Shown here in pieces: positions 3,377 to 35,989 of a DNA stretch of 41,518 nucleotides (positions within the stretch are counted from its first letter, which is position 1; each line of letters begins with the position of its first letter). The translations under genes were made by a program, and so were the position numbers. The stretch lies in the IMG/VR virus record IMGVR_UViG_2802429248_000002; one strand, 5' to 3'. This DNA is from a virus. Its lineage: Duplodnaviria > Heunggongvirae > Uroviricota > Caudoviricetes. The notes under the pieces are model-generated. The model ran no database searches and had not been told where the DNA came from. It saw nothing but the letters and a program-made list of their open reading frames with translations.

Positions 3377-6133
3377 TTAGCTACTTTCAAGCATTGCAAG
3401 ACGTGATTCTATTTTTTCGATTCTTCTACGCAAATAAGCTGACTCAAGCCATAAACACTGGTCAGTACGGATACCCCACCTATTTCCAGCCTTGCAAACC
3501 AGAGTTCGCTCTTCTGTTTCGTATTCTTCTTCCATCTCAATTTCGACGCCATCCACAACTTTAGTGATCATCCTTACCGCCATCACTGGCGCGTATTTAT
3601 CATCCCATTCATCGTAACAGAGAAGGCCAAATCTGGTTCCATCAATCCCATGCGCGAGGAAAGTGTCTCTCACTTGTTGTGCTATAACACCAAAATGCCA
3701 GCGGGCACCATCTCCCTTTTCCCTGACGGCATCAAGCCAGCGAAAAGCTACAATCCTGATATCTCCCCATGCATCCAGAATTGCATCACCTTCATAACCA
3801 CGAGACATATACAAGCTGAGCTCACTTGTACTAATCGGTTCACTTTTTTCTCTACCATCTGATGTGTTTATCGAACCGTTCGCAGAATAAACCTGTGCCC
3901 ATCTAAATGATGGTGCACCAAGAGATTTGCTGTTATCAATAATTGGTGAAAAATTACCTTTAATAGCAATATTTCCAGAGTCGCCGAATATATTAATAAC
4001 TGCAGAGTCATCACCATGGTTTTTTACGCTTAAGTTTCTTGATGAAATATTTATATCTTTGTTATATCCACTAACATTAATCCATCTTTTACCATCAATG
4101 TGATACCCGTAAATATTTCCGTTTGATTGTTCGTCAGGTGACTCTCTAAGAACAATAGCATCTACTCCAGACGACCATTGTATTTTTGTATCTGTAGGCC
4201 TCCAGTTCTTTATAATGAACGAACCATCAGTAAACTCCGTTTTTATTTGTCTATTGTCTACAAATGCGTCTCTTGGTTTAAACTCACTTGTGTTAACGCT
4301 GCTCTGAAGATCAGAAGCAAAAAATCTAAGATTTCCTGTATAACCCTTAGTCTCGGTCAGGTTATACGCAATCATAATTCCATTTTCAAACTCAGATGAT
4401 GTTATTTTAACATCACGGCAATCACCAAAAATGCAATTTCCTTTATCAAATGTTGTTTGAGCTTTGAATTTATCAAACCTTAAATTACGAACAGGGAAAC
4501 CATCAACCTCTAATGCAAAGGATGCAGGAAGGCCAAAGTATTCTGATGGCTTACCTGATGTATGATCAAGAGTAGTGGCTACTGTATTCTCAAAAACAGT
4601 CCCGCTAAAATTATTACCAATTGACGGAAACCTGATTACACTTATTGTACCTTGTATTTCAGGAGAAATACCAGATAGTGTGATGTTAGCTCCATCAAAT
4701 GATGCATCTGAATACGTATATACTGATTCACTGCCAGCAATTTTAAACTGTTTAACTGAAGTTATTCTCATCGACTTTTTATGTTTAAATGTCACTGAGC
4801 TTTCAGTATTACTTACAAGATCAATCTGAGGGCTATTCCTTATCGCGATCCCTGACTGGACATAAACGTTATTAAAGTGCGTTTTTTCAGGATTTCCCTT
4901 CATTGAAAGGCTCCCGTCATTTTCTGTCAGTAGTAGTCCTTTTACCCTCCAATAGCCGACAATCTGTACGTTATCAATAACTGAATCACAGCTATCGTAT
5001 ACATGCAACCCTATATCCCAGTCATCACCCAATGAATAAGAATCAGGGTTATTGTATCCTTCAATACCATTTTTACTTACCATTATTCTCAGGTTGCGTA
5101 ACTGTGATGCCCTGTTGATACTAACAGCTACGCTCATGGCTTTTGGTGTAGCAGGAGTAACACCTACAGAATCTTCATTTGTAAACTCAGTGAACTTACA
5201 AGATATCCCTTCAACAATTTTAACTGGTCTTTCATTAGAGATGTTAAAAAAATATTTGTTTTTTTCTCCATCACCAGTAAATACAAGATGGGTTCCTTTA
5301 CTCCAACTTTTTAATAATCTTTCAGGCGCTGGTCTATATGTATCCCAATAATCAATGCCATCACCAATTAAAGACACTCCAGGAGGCACATCTATGTTCT
5401 TAGAAATCATCCATTTACCTGCAGGTATTCTAACGACACTTGCACCAGAATTTATCGCATTAATTAACCATTCAGACGCATCAACTTCAAAATTTAATGC
5501 AGCATATCTTTGCTCAAACGGAACAAAATCAAGAGCGTTAACGTTATCCCGCATCTTATCCTGGAACGTTCGGTATACTGCTCCAGAACCATACTGAATA
5601 AACCAACCAAAACCACCAACAACTCCGGCGATTGCAGCATCAACATAATTGCGCATTGATCGATTATTTACAGCATCCTGCTCAAGTGATGGATCTGCAA
5701 GGTTAGAAATTTTGTTTTGCTTTGCATCGTAATATTTTGCAAGCAAAGATGGTTTCATCAATGCACGTCTGAACCATCCAAAACATTGCTGGATCAGCAT
5801 CGTCAGATAGTCAAAGGCATCTTCATGCACCTCGGGGAAAAATTTTCCCTGATTACGAAGATCAGTCTCCTGCACCACATCAAGCACACGATCTATCGTA
5901 ATTCGCCATCCAGCAGCAAGCGGCGACGGAAGAACAACAGAACCGCCACTATAAGTGCCCGCCCCTGTTACCGTATAACCGGTATCCAGAACCAATTCTG
6001 TTACGTTCCCGTTCAGGTCAGACACCTGAACAACCAGGTCGGATTTTTTGAAAATACGGAAGGTATACGGAAATGATGTCGTAGCTCCGTTACCTGTGTA
6101 TTCGTTGTGGTCAACTTCGGTTGAGACCGTCAT
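3377..6133 (-). CDS. Tailspike protein with C-terminal intramolecular-chaperone-like domain
   Basis: 918 aa. N-terminus MTVSTEVDHNEYTGNG..TSFPYTFRIFKKSDLVV resembles the conserved particle-binding head of epsilon15/phiV10-type tailspikes (memory). Central region is Asn/Ser/Gly-rich as in beta-helix depolymerases. C-terminal ~150 aa (..TSDGREK..) resembles the self-cleaving chaperone domain (peptidase S74-like) of endosialidase-type tailspikes. Confidence 0.8.
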   Translation of the reverse strand: MTVSTEVDHNEYTGNGATTSFPYTFRIFKKSDLVVQVSDLNGNVTELVLDTGYTVTGAGTYSGGSVVLPSPLAAGWRITIDRVLDVVQETDLRNQGKFFPEVHEDAFDYLTMLIQQCFGWFRRALMKPSLLAKYYDAKQNKISNLADPSLEQDAVNNRSMRNYVDAAIAGVVGGFGWFIQYGSGAVYRTFQDKMRDNVNALDFVPFEQRYAALNFEVDASEWLINAINSGASVVRIPAGKWMISKNIDVPPGVSLIGDGIDYWDTYRPAPERLLKSWSKGTHLVFTGDGEKNKYFFNISNERPVKIVEGISCKFTEFTNEDSVGVTPATPKAMSVAVSINRASQLRNLRIMVSKNGIEGYNNPDSYSLGDDWDIGLHVYDSCDSVIDNVQIVGYWRVKGLLLTENDGSLSMKGNPEKTHFNNVYVQSGIAIRNSPQIDLVSNTESSVTFKHKKSMRITSVKQFKIAGSESVYTYSDASFDGANITLSGISPEIQGTISVIRFPSIGNNFSGTVFENTVATTLDHTSGKPSEYFGLPASFALEVDGFPVRNLRFDKFKAQTTFDKGNCIFGDCRDVKITSSEFENGIMIAYNLTETKGYTGNLRFFASDLQSSVNTSEFKPRDAFVDNRQIKTEFTDGSFIIKNWRPTDTKIQWSSGVDAIVLRESPDEQSNGNIYGYHIDGKRWINVSGYNKDINISSRNLSVKNHGDDSAVINIFGDSGNIAIKGNFSPIIDNSKSLGAPSFRWAQVYSANGSINTSDGREKSEPISTSELSLYMSRGYEGDAILDAWGDIRIVAFRWLDAVREKGDGARWHFGVIAQQVRDTFLAHGIDGTRFGLLCYDEWDDKYAPVMAVRMITKVVDGVEIEMEEEYETEERTLVCKAGNRWGIRTDQCLWLESAYLRRRIEKIESRLAMLESS

Positions 6134-6238
6134 GTTAAATCTCCAGATAGTCGCAGCACCCGTTGCGCCGCATATCTGGTTATTCTATTACCTGAAAAAC
6201 CACATATGGATAGAAAGACTGTAAATACGAACAGATAT

Positions 6239-6291: not shown

Positions 6292-6307
6292 CTGTATAAA
6301 TATACAG
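6292..6307. promoter_or_regulatory. LexA box (SOS box) CTGTATAAATATACAG
   Basis: Perfect CTGT-N8-ACAG with AT-rich spacer, flanked TA..TT (TACTGTATAAATATACAGTT, 6290-6309). Sits 22 bp upstream of ATG 6329 and overlaps a TTGATA -35-like hexamer (6286-6291). Confidence 0.75.
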
Positions 6308-7357: not shown

Positions 7358-7465
7358 TTACCTTAAAGGTAATATCTTGCTTTCAGGTGATCAAGCGTTA
7401 AACGCAATCAACCAAATACGGTTGATTTTAATGTTTCTTCGCGCTTATCATTACCTTTACGGTAA
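7358..7465. promoter_or_regulatory. Two operator palindromes (TTACCTTAAAGGTAA 7358-7372; TTACCTTTACGGTAA 7451-7465) in the divergent region between 6609-7337 and 7732-8418
   Basis: On the minus strand TTGATC-17 bp-TACCTT precedes the first palindrome, giving a promoter whose -10 is overlapped by the operator. A TTGATT (7422-7427)-17 bp-TTATCA (7445-7450) plus-strand promoter abuts the second palindrome. Confidence 0.5.
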
Positions 7466-7558
7466 ATTTACATAGCACTCCTCTTGTGCCATAGTAATCG
7501 GGCACTGGCAAAATCCAGTGCCGGGATTGGCGTCCCGGATTACTACAGAGGCACATAT

Positions 7559-7578
7559 GCCGCATAAGCGGTTTTTTT
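7559..7578 (+). terminator. Short intrinsic terminator/attenuator-like hairpin in the leader of the Bro-N gene
   Basis: Stem GCCGC (7559-7563), loop ATAA, GCGG, then seven T (7572-7578); preceded by an 8-bp stem hairpin GGCACTGG-CAAAAT-CCAGTGCC (7501-7522). Confidence 0.4.
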
Positions 7579-7731
7579 ATGTGTAAAGCGCACCTATTCT
7601 ATGGTGGGCTGTGTGGGGGCACCGAAAGGTGCGCCGGGTCCTTTGTAGCCGGTTACGCCAACCCTGCACAGTTCACCACCAACCGATTGGCGTCGGTAGT
7701 GGTGATTAACCTAACTACAAAGGTGATCACT

Positions 7732-8418
7732 ATGACTGCTAACGTAACCCCATCTGTTTTTCATTTTGAATCAGAAGCAACCATTCGAGCCATTGTTATT
7801 GATGGAAATCCTTGGTTTGTTGCCAAAGACGTTATTAAAGCTCTTCAACTGACAAACCCCACTATGTCAATAAAATCTCTTGATGATGATGAAAGGGCTA
7901 AATTTAACTTAGGCCGTCAAGGCGAAACCAATATTATCAACGAGTCAGGCCTCTACACACTGATCCTCCGCTGCCGCGATGCGGTGACACCAGGCACTAT
8001 CCCATACCGCTTTCGTAAATGGGTTACAGGTGAGGTTCTTCCTCAGATCCGCCGCACCGGAAGTTACATTAAAAACTCGCTCCCGCAAGAAGAACGCATA
8101 AAGATGGTTGCCGACCAGGTAGCCAACGCCACAGCATCAGCAGTGATGCAGGCAATGAAGATAGAGAACAAAACCTACAGCGCCCCACTAAAGCCCGGCT
8201 ACCGCAGTCTGATTCACTCGCCGTCTGGTGTTCTCGGCCTGACGGAGAACTCACTGCTGATGAATCTGCTGAACCAGTTACAGGACGACGGGCACGACGT
8301 ATCGGGCGCGGCGGCGGAGTTGACCACCATGTTCTGCTACATCGTCGGTGTGAACAAATGCCTGCGTGATATCCAGACGCACGCGGAGTACATCAACGAC
8401 AAAGCAGGGTTCTTCTGA
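7732..8418 (+). CDS. Bro-N domain protein with antirepressor-like C-terminal domain
   Basis: Start taken at MTANVT (ATG 7732, aaaggtga upstream); the longer track ORF begins in a structured leader. N-terminus (FHFESEATIRAIVIDGNPWFVAKDVIKALQLTNP) matches the Bro-N signature; C-terminus is paralogous to the 6329-6586 protein. Confidence 0.7.
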   Translation: MTANVTPSVFHFESEATIRAIVIDGNPWFVAKDVIKALQLTNPTMSIKSLDDDERAKFNLGRQGETNIINESGLYTLILRCRDAVTPGTIPYRFRKWVTGEVLPQIRRTGSYIKNSLPQEERIKMVADQVANATASAVMQAMKIENKTYSAPLKPGYRSLIHSPSGVLGLTENSLLMNLLNQLQDDGHDVSGAAAELTTMFCYIVGVNKCLRDIQTHAEYINDKAGFF

Positions 8419-8475: not shown

Positions 8476-8889
8476 TTATAAAGATGACTGATATTTTACA
8501 ACTCTGTTCATGGCATCTTTTTTCACCGAGCTGATATCAGTTCTTATTTTGGCTTCGTCATTACTGTTTATCATGCTATTAACTTTTTGCACTGACATGC
8601 CGTTTCTTTCAGCCATTGCACATACAGCAGCATCGTATGAAGAACTCGCTGCGATGGATATCACCTTGTTACACTCAAACACAGCACCTTCAGCAATATC
8701 AGATGCCGATGATGCTGGCTTGGTATAAGTCTTGACGTAGTGATCAATACAACTATCCTTCGCCGTCTTGGCAAGAGAAAAATCCATTTTAACTTTGTCG
8801 CAATATGCCTTATCAACACCGTCATAAACATCATAGGATGTCGAGCAAGCGGATATCAAAAATACCGATAACAGCAATAATTCCTTCAT
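8476..8889 (-). CDS. Phage-encoded lipoprotein (moron), candidate superinfection-exclusion or surface factor
   Basis: 137 aa; signal peptide MKELLLLSVFLISAC with lipobox; six further Cys; gene looks AT-rich by eye; tacked on 9 bp after the stop of the large internal virion protein gene. Confidence 0.55.
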   Translation of the reverse strand: MKELLLLSVFLISACSTSYDVYDGVDKAYCDKVKMDFSLAKTAKDSCIDHYVKTYTKPASSASDIAEGAVFECNKVISIAASSSYDAAVCAMAERNGMSVQKVNSMINSNDEAKIRTDISSVKKDAMNRVVKYQSSL

Positions 8890-22694: not shown

Positions 22695-22987
22695 TCCTGT
22701 TCACTGGCCTCTTTGGCCATCTTCAAATACTGTTCAGGGCAATGCGCCATAACGCGCTGAAACAGTTCCAGCGCCAGATTGCGTTGCCCCTCATTAAATG
22801 CCATTGCCATAGCGTCCATCGGTGAGATAGCGGAAAACACACGGCCTTTCTCCAGCACCGACCAGACAACGCGACGCCCCTGTTCACTGCTCATGACAAA
22901 GCGAATGTCATCAATTTCACGCTGCGCCATGTCACGTTGCTTACGGGCGTTTTCTTCTTTCAGTTGATCGTCTTCGTAATCTGTCAT
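22691..22987 (-). CDS. Hypothetical protein between portal and scaffold
   Basis: 98 aa, charged and helical; overlaps the portal stop. Confidence 0.45.
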   Translation of the reverse strand: MTDYEDDQLKEENARKQRDMAQREIDDIRFVMSSEQGRRVVWSVLEKGRVFSAISPMDAMAMAFNEGQRNLALELFQRVMAHCPEQYLKMAKEASEQE

Positions 22988-24663
22988 TGTGATTGCCCAC
23001 CCTGACCACTAACTGCATTCGCCATAGCTGACAAAACACTCGGATCCGAAGTTTTAGCTTCGCTTAGCGTCTTGGCACCCTGTGCCGCCGCCATCCCCAT
23101 CGCCATCATTTGTTGCTGCTGTTGCTGCTGTGCCCGTTGCTGGCGAGCCTGCTCAACCTGTTCCTGCGGAACAATGACGGTTGGAGACACTCCGGACATA
23201 TCAGCGAATGCATCGATCGCCTGATCAACGTTGAGTTTGTCGAGAGCTTCTGGTTTCGCTTGCGCAAGTTGACCAATGAAGTTAACCGTGGACGCCAGAC
23301 TGGACAGGCCGATAGACTTCTGCGCCTGAGCCATGACGGAAATGTATTCGACCTTCAGGGGCATACCTTCCATCGCGTCAGGCGGTGGCGGCAGCATGTT
23401 TTTACGCACCATCATCGAGAAAGCGCGGTCAATGAGAGGGTTAAGACATTCGTCGTTCAGACGCTCCAGAACCGGCCCCAACATCAGAAGCTTTTCTTCT
23501 TTCATTTCGATCACTGCTTCAACAGGCATCGAGCGGGTATTGATGTTCTGCAACATCATGAACAGATCGACAAAGTAGGCGCTGTTAATGATTTGACGGG
23601 TGTCCTGAATGTCTGCTACCAAATCTGCTGTACTGGGGTTAACCAGATAAGCAGGCCTGAAGCCATCCTGACCAGTAATCTGATCGATATACGTGATGTC
23701 GCCAGGAAGAAGGGAGGCGCGCTGATTCTTGAGGGAAGTCGGAGCAACCATCGGCGGATTGGTGGCTTTATCAATCAACTGCGACTTGCGCTTCTGGAGA
23801 AGCTGCAATGCCTTAACAGGTCCAAGCGCCAGCATACCAGGGCATGATGATCCATAAACATCTTCGCCGTTAACTTCCCAGCGCGGAGCCATAATTGGAA
23901 ACTCATCGAATCCGGACTCACGCAACAACTTGTCGTTATCGCCACCAACCTCGTAATAAACCGATTTGAATGGCTTGTTCTTGCTATCCAGCTTCGATGT
24001 ATCGCGGTCAATGTTCGGGTAAACCGAATGCATCACTTCAATCCACTTCTCGTAGGTGCCGCTTTCCCACATGCTTTTTACGGATTCGCTGACGTTATTT
24101 AGCCCGAACTCCTGAACAAGCTGACGAACAGTCATAGAGAACTTGCGAAAACAGGTGTCCACACTGCCACGAGGTGAGTTAGCCAGGTAGTAACTGCCTA
24201 TCGGGAATGGCATTGTGCGAATGATGTCCTCGTCATCCTCCAGCACCGCCATTGCACCAGTGCTGTATGTGCCGAGGCTTCCGTATAACTGCGGAAGAGA
24301 CTGGTAGAGATTCGACTTATTGAACATATCGTTCATGCGGTTCTGCACCGCCTCAAGCCACAACTTAACAGGGCCATAATCCATCATTTCAGGATCTGGC
24401 GTAGCCAGGCGAAACCACGGACGCGCGGGGCTTGTGATGCCTGACATCATGCCGCTGGCGAGAGTGCGCGCCGCCATAGTCCCGGTCGAATCAATAATGC
24501 GTGTATTGCGTCGATCGTTACGGTTGACCTCAGAAGTCAGAAAGCGGGAACCACGCGGGTTGATGTAATCACTCAACTCGCGCCAGTGCGGCTCGAACGA
24601 CTGACGCTCGCTTTCAAGTTGTGCGAACTGTTTGTTCAATCGCTCTTTAGTTGTTTCCGCCAT
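22984..24663 (-). CDS. Portal protein
   Basis: 559 aa; first large gene downstream of terminase in the operon; C-terminal poly-Gln/Ala tail. Confidence 0.75.
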   Translation of the reverse strand: MAETTKERLNKQFAQLESERQSFEPHWRELSDYINPRGSRFLTSEVNRNDRRNTRIIDSTGTMAARTLASGMMSGITSPARPWFRLATPDPEMMDYGPVKLWLEAVQNRMNDMFNKSNLYQSLPQLYGSLGTYSTGAMAVLEDDEDIIRTMPFPIGSYYLANSPRGSVDTCFRKFSMTVRQLVQEFGLNNVSESVKSMWESGTYEKWIEVMHSVYPNIDRDTSKLDSKNKPFKSVYYEVGGDNDKLLRESGFDEFPIMAPRWEVNGEDVYGSSCPGMLALGPVKALQLLQKRKSQLIDKATNPPMVAPTSLKNQRASLLPGDITYIDQITGQDGFRPAYLVNPSTADLVADIQDTRQIINSAYFVDLFMMLQNINTRSMPVEAVIEMKEEKLLMLGPVLERLNDECLNPLIDRAFSMMVRKNMLPPPPDAMEGMPLKVEYISVMAQAQKSIGLSSLASTVNFIGQLAQAKPEALDKLNVDQAIDAFADMSGVSPTVIVPQEQVEQARQQRAQQQQQQQMMAMGMAAAQGAKTLSEAKTSDPSVLSAMANAVSGQGGQSQ

Positions 24664-24884: not shown

Positions 24885-24952
24885 ATCAATGACTCCGTAC
24901 GCAATTAAACTATTACCAATTTAACCACATATGATTTATTTATCGTAGATAG

Positions 24953-24989
24953 TTGACATTTAACGCACAAATTATTACCTTTCAGGTAA
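24953..24989 (+). promoter_or_regulatory. Sigma70-like promoter (TTGACA-17-TACCTT) overlapped by operator palindrome TTACCTTTCAGGTAA
   Basis: -35 TTGACA 24953-24958, 17-bp spacer, -10 TACCTT 24976-24981; palindrome 24975-24989 covers the -10 and start site. Points rightward into the leader and tRNA-Arg. Confidence 0.5.
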
Positions 24990-25311
24990 CCAAAGAGTTC
25001 ATTCCGGTTACTAACCTGACTGGCTTGTCGTTAAATTGAACAGGTGGAGTGAGCTTTTATTTTGAGCAGTACGGCGTATGGCACATGCGCCGGTAGCGGT
25101 CTGGATACGTTTAAGGGGCTCCCTCCCTTGCTCGGGCAAACGAACCAGGTAGCCGGAATGTGCAAGTCGAGCGGTTTTATTCCGCGCACGGGGATTCACC
25201 ATCCCGGCGATTCGGTGTGACGCCTCGGAAGAGACGAGGGTACAACGATGAGAGCATTTATGGAGCCGCGACAAAGTGTGGCGCCTTAACAGGCTAAGTG
25301 CTCTCAGCGTT

Positions 25312-25388
25312 GTGGCATTAGCTCAGTTGGACAGAGCAACCGCCTTCTAAGCGGTTGGTCGCAGGTTCGAATCCTGCATGCCACGCCA
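25312..25388 (+). tRNA. tRNA-Arg (anticodon UCU), phage-encoded
   Basis: Cloverleaf readable by eye: acceptor GTGGCAT/ATGCCAC, D-arm GCTC-AGTTGGACA-GAGC, anticodon stem ACCGC/GCGGT with loop CTTCTAA, variable TGGTC, T-arm GCAGG-TTCGAAT-CCTGC, discriminator G, encoded CCA. Confidence 0.9.
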
Positions 25389-25431
25389 GAATCACGCCTA
25401 AGGACCGTGATGCCAGAAGTTCCAGGGGCTT

Positions 25432-25473
25432 GGCGGTGATGGTTTCCCTTGAAGGGCTATCACCGCCCTTTTT
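25432..25473 (+). terminator. Intrinsic terminator downstream of tRNA-Arg
   Basis: Stem GGCGGTGAT (25432-25440) / ATCACCGCC (25459-25467) followed by CTTTTT. Confidence 0.6.
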
Positions 25474-25550
25474 ACAGCAGGACGCCATTGCGATGACTTC
25501 ATGCTGTAAACCAGTACAGCCACGGAAGGCATAACTCATTGCTTCCAGTT

Positions 25551-25576
25551 CGCCCGGTTCGCCGGGCATTTTTTTG
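25551..25576 (+). terminator. Second intrinsic terminator (TTCG tetraloop hairpin plus T7 run)
   Basis: GCCCGG-TTCG-CCGGGC hairpin (25552-25567) followed by seven T. Confidence 0.6.
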
Positions 25577-25591
25577 CTTGATGACCGCAAA

Positions 25592-25606
25592 TTACCTTAA
25601 AGGTAT
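25592..25606. promoter_or_regulatory. Operator palindrome TTACCTTAAAGGTAT overlapping the RBS/-10 region of the cargo gene
   Basis: Ends 4 nt before ATG 25611; a consensus TATAAT hexamer (25604-25609) overlaps its right arm. Confidence 0.45.
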
Positions 25607-25610
25607 AATC

Positions 25611-26429
25611 ATGAAAAACTTCAAGGTAATTAGCATGTTTGAATCGTTTAAAGAGCTGTTTTTATCTACTGCCAATACTGCCGTGAATCGAGCCAAAAAC
25701 CCTGTGCTTGGTGCTTTTGTTATGTCCTGGTGCGCCTTCAACTGGAAATCAATTCTTTATCTATTTTTTAGCAAATCAAACATAATAGATAAAATTTCAT
25801 ATATCTCAGATAACAGCACATGGAAAACTGTTATGTTTTATCCATGCTTATCTGTAATTGCTATCTGCTGCCTATTACCATGGGTAAACAATATCATTAA
25901 CGTATGGCAAGCAAAGCCTCTTGATAATAATGACTCAATCGAAAATCACCTGAAGGCAAGAAAAATCCAGCGTGAAACCAGACTGCAGAGGTTATTGGCT
26001 AAAAAAGATGTTACATACGACAAAGTTAAGACTGGCGCGGAAAAAGACATCCAAGAGATGAAAGAAGAGATTATTCGATCAAAGAATAGTATGGGGGAAT
26101 TGACTGCTGAGTTGAAAGCTAAAGATGACGAATTGAGATCCGCCAGTGCTCAGTTAGCAGCTCTAAATCATTCATTAAAAGAGATATCGGAAACTCTTGG
26201 AAGAATGAATGAGGCATATAAGACCCTCCAAAATGATTTCGACGAATACAAACTCAAATACCCTGAAAAATCTCAAATAAAAAGCCTTGCACTTGGCAAC
26301 GGCCAAACAATTAGCAACTTTTTGGAGCAACACAACTTATCCGGATTAAAATCTGGTAAGCCAAACGTTTTTAATAACTTTGGTGTTCTATCTGGATTAT
26401 CAGGTTTCGAGGATAAAAATAAAGACTAA
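25611..26429 (+). CDS. Membrane protein with C-terminal coiled-coil, function unknown (candidate abortive-infection/exclusion factor)
   Basis: Start taken at MKNFKV (ATG 25611). 272 aa; two hydrophobic helices near the N-terminus, then a long charged heptad-like region (..ELTAELKAKDDELRSASAQLAALNHSLKEISETLGRMNEAYKTLQNDFDEYK..). AT-rich by eye; opposite strand to the flanking terminase and portal genes. Confidence 0.55.
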   Translation: MKNFKVISMFESFKELFLSTANTAVNRAKNPVLGAFVMSWCAFNWKSILYLFFSKSNIIDKISYISDNSTWKTVMFYPCLSVIAICCLLPWVNNIINVWQAKPLDNNDSIENHLKARKIQRETRLQRLLAKKDVTYDKVKTGAEKDIQEMKEEIIRSKNSMGELTAELKAKDDELRSASAQLAALNHSLKEISETLGRMNEAYKTLQNDFDEYKLKYPEKSQIKSLALGNGQTISNFLEQHNLSGLKSGKPNVFNNFGVLSGLSGFEDKNKD

Positions 26430-35404: not shown

Positions 35405-35989
35405 ATGAAAAGTATCCAGGACGTCCGCAGGCAAAATCTCAACGACTTGATCGACCGTGAATTCAATGGTGTTCAGACGCGGATGGCTGAAAAACTTGGA
35501 ACTCAGGCAAATCTGGTAAACCGCTGGGCTCTTGGCAAGAAGGTTATCGGCGACCAGGTTGCGCGAAAAATTGAAGCTGCCGCCAATAAACCCCGTAACT
35601 GGCTTGATATCGATCGCTCGCTTTCTCAGGAAGGTTTTCAGCCTGTCGGCCCGAGTGATATAGGTCAGCTGGCTGCTCACAACCTGGAACGCTGGATGAG
35701 CGAAAGCCGCGACCTTTCAACGCAGGGAAAACTACACCGCGCATCCGGCGTCGCCCAGGTGACAATCAGCCGCCTGTTAAACAATGAGGTCAGCGTTTCC
35801 ATTTCCACCCTGGAGAATGTTGCATCCGCATTCGGGCGTCATGGCTATGAATTACTGATTCACCCGCACGACCCTGCGACTATCAACTATGACCGCTCGC
35901 GCTACGCATTGTTACCCGAAACCGAGAAAGCAAAGATCGAAAGTTACATTGAATTTGTCATCAACCAGAACGAAAAAAACAAACAATAA
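35405..35989 (+). CDS. XRE-family repressor-like protein with two HTH motifs and no S24 autocleavage domain (putative immunity repressor)
   Basis: 194 aa; HTH 1 GVQTRMAEKLGTQANLVNRW, HTH 2 ASGVAQVTISRLLNNEVSVS; no GDSM/Ser-Lys peptidase signature; flanked by operator clusters on both sides; terminator immediately downstream. Confidence 0.55.
   Translation: MKSIQDVRRQNLNDLIDREFNGVQTRMAEKLGTQANLVNRWALGKKVIGDQVARKIEAAANKPRNWLDIDRSLSQEGFQPVGPSDIGQLAAHNLERWMSESRDLSTQGKLHRASGVAQVTISRLLNNEVSVSISTLENVASAFGRHGYELLIHPHDPATINYDRSRYALLPETEKAKIESYIEFVINQNEKNKQ

Follow-up and report, generated by a model that had tools for sequence, protein, structure and literature searches.

What does a compositionally foreign gene do for a temperate phage when it lies between a tRNA gene and terL on the strand opposite to the virion genes, and when is it expressed? 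The gene in question belongs to IMG/VR virus record IMGVR_UViG_2802429248_000002, a 41,518-nucleotide (nt) stretch that was analysed whole (the window) and that is a phiV10/epsilon15-like (Uetakevirus) prophage, a temperate podovirus. A preliminary description had pictured its product as a single-gene superinfection-exclusion or abortive-infection effector expressed from a prophage moron. The functional guess was reasonable, but the assumed expression state was probably wrong. The gene is an optional, horizontally acquired single-gene cassette composed of promoter, operator and coding sequence, and its regulatory sequences look like those of a repressor-controlled lytic or early gene rather than of a constitutive prophage moron. 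The reading that we favour, tentatively, is that this repressor-gated accessory cassette helps mobile elements to compete with one another at the inner membrane. The locus is laid out as follows.

22984-24663, minus strand: portal gene
24953-25467, plus strand: tRNA unit, with promoter TTGACA-17-TACCTT, operator at 24976-24988, a 280-nt structured leader, tRNA-Arg(UCU) and a terminator at 25432-25467
25312-25388, plus strand: tRNA-Arg(UCU)
25552-25575, plus strand: intrinsic terminator GCCCGG-ttcg-CCGGGC with T-run (terminator scan), closing the upstream tRNA-Arg unit
25635-26429, plus strand: coding sequence of the gene studied, 264 amino acids (aa) and stop codon
26426-27901, minus strand: terL

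The mobility of the cassette was established by comparing the tRNA-to-terL interval in 87 loci whose terL genes are 97-100% identical. This slot is either empty (316 nt), occupied by one of at least five other cargos, or filled by an allele of the gene's family (201, 246, 263, 264 or 282 aa). The other cargos are a PF13876 (Sf6 gp66 / N4 gp49-like) gene, as in phiV10, and unrelated open reading frames (ORFs) of 61, 110, 115 and 140 aa. To the left, positions 24900-25575 are 98-99% identical to phiV10, TL-2011b and their relatives, and the 99% identity to phiV10 stops at about 25575, in the T-run of the 25552-25575 terminator directly after which the other cargos begin. The ribosome-binding sites (RBSs) of the 61-, 110- and 140-aa ORFs and of the gp66-like genes abut this T-run and these genes have no promoter of their own; most other cargos therefore depend on read-through from the tRNA promoter. 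None of them has the operator described below, and only the family studied here brings its own promoter. Being present or absent among near-identical phages, the gene resembles a moron sensu Hendrix; it has its own promoter but no terminator of its own, since its stop codon overlaps the convergent terL stop by 4 nt (26426-26429) and the terminator scan of the window found none between the two genes.

The composition of the gene is equally foreign. Its G+C content (GC), 0.366, is the lowest among the 40 long ORFs of the window (mean 0.497, sd 0.039, z -3.3), its relative synonymous codon usage correlates at only 0.19 with that of the pooled other phage genes (median 0.655), and AGA or AGG encodes five of its eight arginines, versus 19% elsewhere. 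The atypical composition and the accessory nature anticipated by the preliminary description were thus both borne out, and no homology to head, tail, structural or packaging families was found.

The ORF is real and extends on the plus strand from 25539 or 25611 to 26429. RefSeq annotates a 272-aa hypothetical protein starting at 25611, as did the preliminary description, yet the true start is probably ATG 25635, because three kinds of evidence favour it. First, the equivalent methionine opens 11 of 11 close homologues with displayed N-termini, and 246 and 264 aa are the commonest homologue lengths among the 120 matches listed. Secondly, the alignment to the phrog_4780 profile begins at residue 9 of the 272-aa form. 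Thirdly, the predicted transcript start (about 25616) falls downstream of ATG 25611. The signals preceding this start are:

25581-25609, plus strand: predicted sigma-70-type promoter (-35 ATGACC at 25581-25586, 17-nt spacer, -10 TATAAT at 25604-25609)
25593-25605, no strand assigned: operator palindrome TACCTTaAAGGTA, lying in the promoter spacer and reaching into the -10
25623-25626, plus strand: RBS AAGG, read from the sequence, 8 nt before ATG 25635

The promoter, with 10 of 12 consensus matches, is the only good one for the gene, and the 13-bp palindrome TACCTTAAAGGTA overlaps it. In all 74 viral contigs encoding a relative (43-100% identity), the palindrome precedes the start codon at -42 to -46, with constant arms and variable central bases. 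It is exact in 63 of 64 cassettes on home-type backbones and imperfect in 4 of 11 on foreign ones, counts that are not phylogenetically independent. The TGAC core and a TAnnnT -10 are retained in alleles on other backbones, one of which has palindromes of another kind in the interval between its cro and repressor genes. Two other candidate control elements were rejected: the RBS is overlapped by a further half-site (inverted repeat I1) that other alleles do not keep, and the LexA-box-like CTGT-N8-ACAG at 25504 lies upstream of the promoter, such boxes not exceeding chance in the window. Exact boxes occur at 6219-6234 and 6292-6307 (intergenic, upstream of the tailspike; the sequence at 6292 is CTGTATAAATATACAG) and at 25504-25519, between the two post-tRNA terminators.

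The palindrome is not confined to the cassette. Exact TACC-N5-GGTA occurs 12 times in the window versus 0.65 expected, and three further sites with one arm mismatch (6239, 35288 and 35319) have similar intergenic positions, which agrees with the operator-gated start proposed in the preliminary description. The palindrome is also found at the early-left promoter. The remaining sites and the gene that they surround are listed here.

35288, 35319 and 35336: operator sites between the cro-like gene and a 194-aa protein with two helix-turn-helix (HTH) domains
35405-35989, plus strand: the 194-aa protein, probable lysogeny repressor (YdaS-like HTH at residues 21-61, Pfam HTH_3 at 104-148)
36048 and 36109: operator sites just downstream of the 194-aa protein and before the recombination operon; a TTGACA-17-AATTAT promoter abuts
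7359 and 7452: operator sites before an isrK/C4/Bro-N antirepressor-type operon
32943 and 33005: operator sites before a replication-region gene
24976: operator site over the -10 of the tRNA promoter
28549: operator site just upstream of terS
34951: further TACC-N5-GGTA position listed for the network

These positions are syntenic in Escherichia coli, Klebsiella and Salmonella relatives. In Salmonella phage SPC32H, 11 such sites (0.47 expected) have the same layout around a gene annotated rep, whose product is 42% identical to the 194-aa protein over its full length (E-value (E) 2e-53). The 35405-35989 product is, by this comparison, a probable lysogeny repressor. Because the sites flank its gene and the lytic promoters, with the same layout around SPC32H rep, we infer that TACC-N5-GGTA is the operator of this repressor on every lytic promoter, including that of the cassette, whose site belongs to the sequence class flanking the repressor gene here and in SPC32H. 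In its home phage the gene would most likely be off in the lysogen, since its promoter carries the palindrome shared with the repressor flanks and the lytic promoters, and made early after infection or induction. The site upstream of terS suggests direct repressor control of the late operon as well. The operon at 7359 and 7452 contains isrK and C4 antisense RNA (Rfam) back to back at 7502-7683, followed by a Bro-N domain ORF; this module, whose span includes 7579-8418, is P1-immI-like and of the antirepressor type, with the two operators in front. Phages of the phiV10/epsilon15 type serve to type and detect O157 and Salmonella, and the map of sites, terS included, helps to understand how they keep lysogeny.

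This wiring bears directly on whether the gene could be a classical moron, constitutively transcribed from the prophage and acting in the lysogen as a single-gene superinfection-exclusion or abortive-infection effector. The strong promoter on the opposite strand, the foreign composition and the combination of membrane helices with a coiled coil fit such a role, as does the occurrence of distant relatives at the P2 site that houses the lysogen-expressed tin and old. A single operator may also permit some basal expression and, in heteroimmune hosts, the resident operators differ, so that the promoter would be open there. On the home backbone, however, the operator overlaps the -10 and its motif is shared with every lytic promoter (cro, antirepressor and terS among them), and its preservation in 63 of 64 home-type cassettes is hard to square with a promoter left open in lysogens. 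We therefore consider constitutive lysogen expression unlikely; the operator that the preliminary description had itself noticed is the palindrome that also flanks the repressor gene and marks the promoters of cro, the early-left operon, the antirepressor, the tRNA and terS.

The product is probably, according to structure prediction, a small inner-membrane protein with a coiled-coil stalk. In what follows, AlphaFold and module positions are counted from the second methionine (264 aa), and hydrophobic segments in the 272-aa form.

25635-26114, plus strand: conserved N-terminal module, aa 1-160, column identity 0.71-0.97
25821-26258, plus strand: continuous helix, aa 63-208, from AlphaFold and the heptad register
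26115-26426, plus strand: hypervariable C-terminal part, aa 161-264, column identity about 0.35 past residue 160

Two hydrophobic segments (residues 32-53 and 71-100) are followed by a single heptad register at about residues 119-190 (some 70 residues), in agreement with AlphaFold and with the two hydrophobic helices and heptad-like stretch of the preliminary description. The coiled coil that it proposed thus stood, but not its length of about 160 residues: the helical part comprises about 120 and the last 55 or so are predicted to be disordered. An alignment of close homologues alone gave a poor AlphaFold model (predicted local distance difference test, pLDDT, 66), while a diverse 135-sequence alignment raised the pLDDT to 85.6, with values of about 85-98 over residues 1-210 (mostly above 90, and at least 85 in every 10-residue block). 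The predicted helices are 2-20, 23-35, 37-45, 50-60 and a continuous one at 63-208 (pLDDT above 90), before the disordered tail. The N-terminal module would accordingly consist of an amphipathic helix (2-20), a hydrophobic hairpin (23-45) with an invariant FNWK, a loop helix (50-60) and a transmembrane helix from residue 63, with the conserved juxtamembrane stretch KPLDNNDSIEN...TRLQRL..DVTYDKVKTGAEKDIQ. In the model, the second transmembrane segment passes without a break into a heptad stalk of about 115 residues, some 17 nm long. The C-terminal part corresponds to the distal coiled coil and a disordered G/S/N-rich tail ending in basic residues.

On which side of the membrane this stalk lies determines the kind of mechanism to be considered. 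Across the family, the mean number of lysines and arginines is 3.7 in the N-terminal tail, 2.3 in the loop between the helices, which is net negative, and 2.6 in the flank after helix 2. Because these family-wide charge counts favour it, an N-in/C-in orientation with a cytoplasmic stalk is most likely. With the inverted topology, the protein would be a periplasmic rod of about 17 nm, spanin- or TolA-like, blocking the trans-envelope channel of incoming podoviruses. A helix of this length is of periplasm-spanning order, and in this allele the 15 residues that directly follow the second membrane helix carry a net negative charge, both in keeping with such a rod. Besides the charge counts, the strongly basic residues 15-35 past the membrane speak against it, as do the lack of a lipoprotein partner and the absence of anything spanin-like above the Pfam threshold, and we regard the periplasmic rod as quite improbable. 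An i-spanin (Rz-like) identity was likewise rejected, given the empty Pfam scan, the favoured cytoplasmic stalk and the position of the gene between terL and portal.

The conservation profile divides the protein sharply in two. In 112 homologues, column conservation is 71-97% over residues 1-160 and falls abruptly to about 35% beyond. Clustering at 40% identity separates the C-terminal 63-121 residues of the 112 homologues into at least 27 types, and their N-termini form a single cluster; in E. coli, 559 nt shared at 91% identity are followed by unrelated sequence in different alleles. The tip, judging from these alignments, has been swapped many times between alleles. The protein belongs to phrog_4780 (E 3.2e-137; residues 9-272 on profile positions 1-267 of 275), and its N-terminal module is common to phrog_13369 (E 4e-21) and phrog_35327 (E 5e-19); all three are families of unknown function, so membership explains nothing. 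A profile of the module matched 2489 representatives of 50%-identity clusters, 379 of them at E<=1e-10, which makes it a large family without annotation, having no Pfam or PADLOC model. The 135 aligned members (164-514 aa) nearly all have the module at or near the N-terminus and share no Pfam domain. A search of genome contigs with the N-terminal profile gave no confirmed relatives, and a literature text search with the RefSeq accessions and the PHROG identifier found no paper.

Such breadth makes it very improbable that the gene is non-functional, whether as an AT-rich ORF that arose by chance or as a selfish insert in decay. Decay does occur in the family: two viral contigs carry truncated copies of 62 and 100 aa, another copy is disrupted N-terminally, a 163-aa form is represented by 29 member sequences, and plasmid copies are cut by IS1. 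Against this stand the strong conservation of the first 160 residues over the 112 homologues, the 379 cluster representatives at E<=1e-10, the confident AlphaFold model and the conserved promoter, operator and RBS; moreover, 37 of 5426 complete E. coli genomes hold the allele nearly entire (at least 80% of the query, about 99% identity).

The neighbourhoods of the relatives extend the picture beyond this phage type. In the same slot the family is present at 29-75% identity, the lowest value belonging to a distant epsilon15-like prophage, and further members are carried by two Klebsiella elements, a lambdoid phage (in its nin region) and another prophage. At these three kinds of site the gene stands alone on the strand opposite to its neighbours. 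Two different P2-like prophages carry a relative (396 and 514 aa) between gpA and portal Q; these copies differ in lying on the same strand as the upstream early genes. The gpA-Q interval of P2 is the tin/old anti-phage hotspot (PMC9122126), where 15-32% of unknown proteins were called defensive by machine learning (PMC13586616). Pfam recognises no domain in the small ORFs that precede the P2-hotspot and epsilon15-like relatives. Further relatives are carried by a phage-plasmid of about 112 kb, by a chromosomal islet beside hok and by Leptospira plasmids, and one lies in a non-mobile context. On plasmids, intact copies lie about 80 nt downstream of DUF1778-GNAT and RelBE toxin-antitoxin operons (L180:6113-7864, L181:6365-7714), and many Klebsiella conjugative plasmids carry the IS1-cut copy beside a cyclic-oligonucleotide-based anti-phage signalling (CBASS) operon with SAVED, nucleotidyltransferase, E1-like and JAB genes (L178:1-6309). 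The family thus recurs in those parts of enterobacterial prophages, phage-plasmids and conjugative plasmids that are variable and rich in defence genes.

The spread over such elements also bears on the idea of a lytic-cycle helper unrelated to exclusion, which might counter a membrane-based host defence, remodel the envelope or division, or adjust lysis timing. The gene has the wiring of a lytic or early gene, its slot also houses the phage tRNA and small lytic-phase cargos read through from the tRNA promoter, and it is itself AGA-rich and situated beside tRNA-Arg(UCU). It is nevertheless dispensable, near-identical phages lacking it; it lies far from the lysis genes with no embedded or adjacent partner gene (no plus-strand ORF of at least 40 aa in the window list is embedded in or adjoins it); Pfam gives no holin, spanin or Kil match; and conjugative plasmids and chromosomal islets, which carry relatives, have no lytic cycle. 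We give this explanation only a minor share of belief.

Under the favoured reading of repressor-gated competition, the events may be pictured as follows. A self-contained cassette entered the gap between tRNA-Arg and terL, on the strand opposite to that of the virion genes. In the home phage, the lysogeny repressor would occlude its promoter; without repressor, during early infection or induction, the protein would be made, and heteroimmune phages that acquired the cassette could express it constitutively. The constant two-helix membrane module would act as effector or anchor; the long stalk would present an exchangeable tip, which would determine recognition. As a result, the entry of incoming DNA may be blocked or the cell arrested. 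Acting only while repressor is absent, the protein would resemble the early exclusion proteins known from virulent phages more than a permanent defence of the lysogen. A constant membrane part with a swappable tip is what one would expect of a specificity-bearing competition factor. Of the possible functions, exclusion or defence has the best support, which comes from context only.

Several points weigh against this proposal. No homology ties the gene to any exclusion or defence protein, and the other slot cargos match no defence model either (four were scanned: none has a PADLOC model and only one a Pfam match, PF13876, of unknown function). Location in the P2 hotspot is only moderately predictive (15-32%; PMC13586616). 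Repressor binding is deduced from site distribution only, and Cro or another protein could bind. The stalk could be periplasmic, which would imply another mechanism. Finally, coiled coils drift fast, and the C-terminal diversity could partly reflect relaxed constraint rather than selection.

A bolder extension, to which we assign a low probability, is that the whole family is a widespread, undescribed single-gene anti-mobile-element system that fires on repressor loss and has interchangeable recognition tips. Here the labile regulator of each element would silence the gene, through the operator in phages and through the position behind autoregulated toxin-antitoxin operons on plasmids, and release would follow when the regulator is lost on infection, induction or host shut-off. 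If the gene excludes phages, a common system would have been overlooked by current defence finders. If the proposed wiring is true, this would be a cargo gene tied into the immunity circuit of its carrier instead of being expressed from the prophage.

Some further observations concern the surroundings of the cassette. Transcription from its promoter would continue antisense into terL and, conversely, late transcription must traverse the cassette and the tRNA in antisense. The leader of about 280 nt ahead of tRNA-Arg (within 24953-25311) folds better than shuffled sequences (z -2.6), and has no Rfam match; the lambdoid phages cdtI, mEp460 and 2H10 contain a region with about 83% identity to it. 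Alternative slot cargos were seen at loci L001, L021, L024, L030, L031, L047 and L055, and the cargo of SPC32H (L182:2161-2577) is a 138-aa protein with an N-terminal hydrophobic anchor. The gene is present at 99% identity in NZ_CP079771.1, where it adjoins a terminase, and in NZ_CP079768.1; these 41,027-bp records, typed as plasmids and of about phage-genome size, probably represent the phage, assembled as a circular episome. Elsewhere in the window, two more ORFs are clearly low in GC: 3377-6133 (0.397), a 918-aa ORF in the tailspike position with AGA or AGG for 30 of 49 arginines, and 8476-8889 (0.391), a 137-aa ORF with no Pfam match.

How the protein relates to known systems was addressed by profile searches and by comparison of gene organization. 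Scans against Pfam, NCBIfam and PADLOC returned only coiled-coil noise below curated cut-offs, the best PADLOC-DB 2.0 match being DndD (E 2.2e-5, coiled-coil segment only) and the rest SMC, JetC and LmuB coiled coils; a profile search against PDB sequences gave nothing below E 0.9. The preliminary description, which had assigned no known function, was right in this respect.

SieB of lambda and P22 is likewise a small phage protein that starts with two hydrophobic helices and has a soluble C-terminal part, and likewise a single gene opposite to the surrounding operon, lambda sieB lying antisense between ral and N. It aborts the lytic growth of other phages, and its regulation differs from that of the gene studied here; it also lacks a long coiled coil and a hypervariable tip. 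Homology to SieB (PF14163) was rejected, as there was no Pfam match at E<=1 and hhalign of the 135-member profile against lambda SieB gave a probability of 1%. P22 SieA, an inner-membrane protein with 162 aa and three transmembrane helices, prevents P22-like phages from injecting their DNA, is sufficient on its own and exists in very divergent sequence types (PMC10883804). Like the present protein, it is an inner-membrane accessory factor encoded within the virion-gene region of a temperate podovirus; it has no coiled coil and is prophage-expressed, whereas the gene studied carries a repressor-type operator. With 264 aa, two hydrophobic segments and no FxRYPxEAxxFNK motif, the protein is not SieA.

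Anti-phage cargo of the P2 gpA-Q interval (old, tin) resembles the cassette in consisting of single genes of variable content and foreign composition, and relatives occupy the same locus; as far as text search shows, neither PMC9122126 nor PMC13586616 names or tests the family. The entry-exclusion proteins of mobile elements (F TraS and SXT/R391 Eex) are also small and located in the inner membrane; no homology to them was seen, in searches not aimed at them. In Eex, specificity resides in a variable cytoplasmic C-terminal part. Family members on conjugative plasmids adjoin replication and toxin-antitoxin genes and, unlike entry-exclusion genes, lie outside the transfer operons. T4 Imm and Sp, both small membrane proteins, are synthesised soon after T4 itself infects the cell and exclude superinfecting T-even phages; no Imm-like Pfam family scored above threshold. 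They are much smaller, stalkless and from a virulent phage, but their early, non-prophage expression is the pattern implied by the operator here. Nothing yet sets the gene outside the known kind of phage-encoded membrane competition factors.

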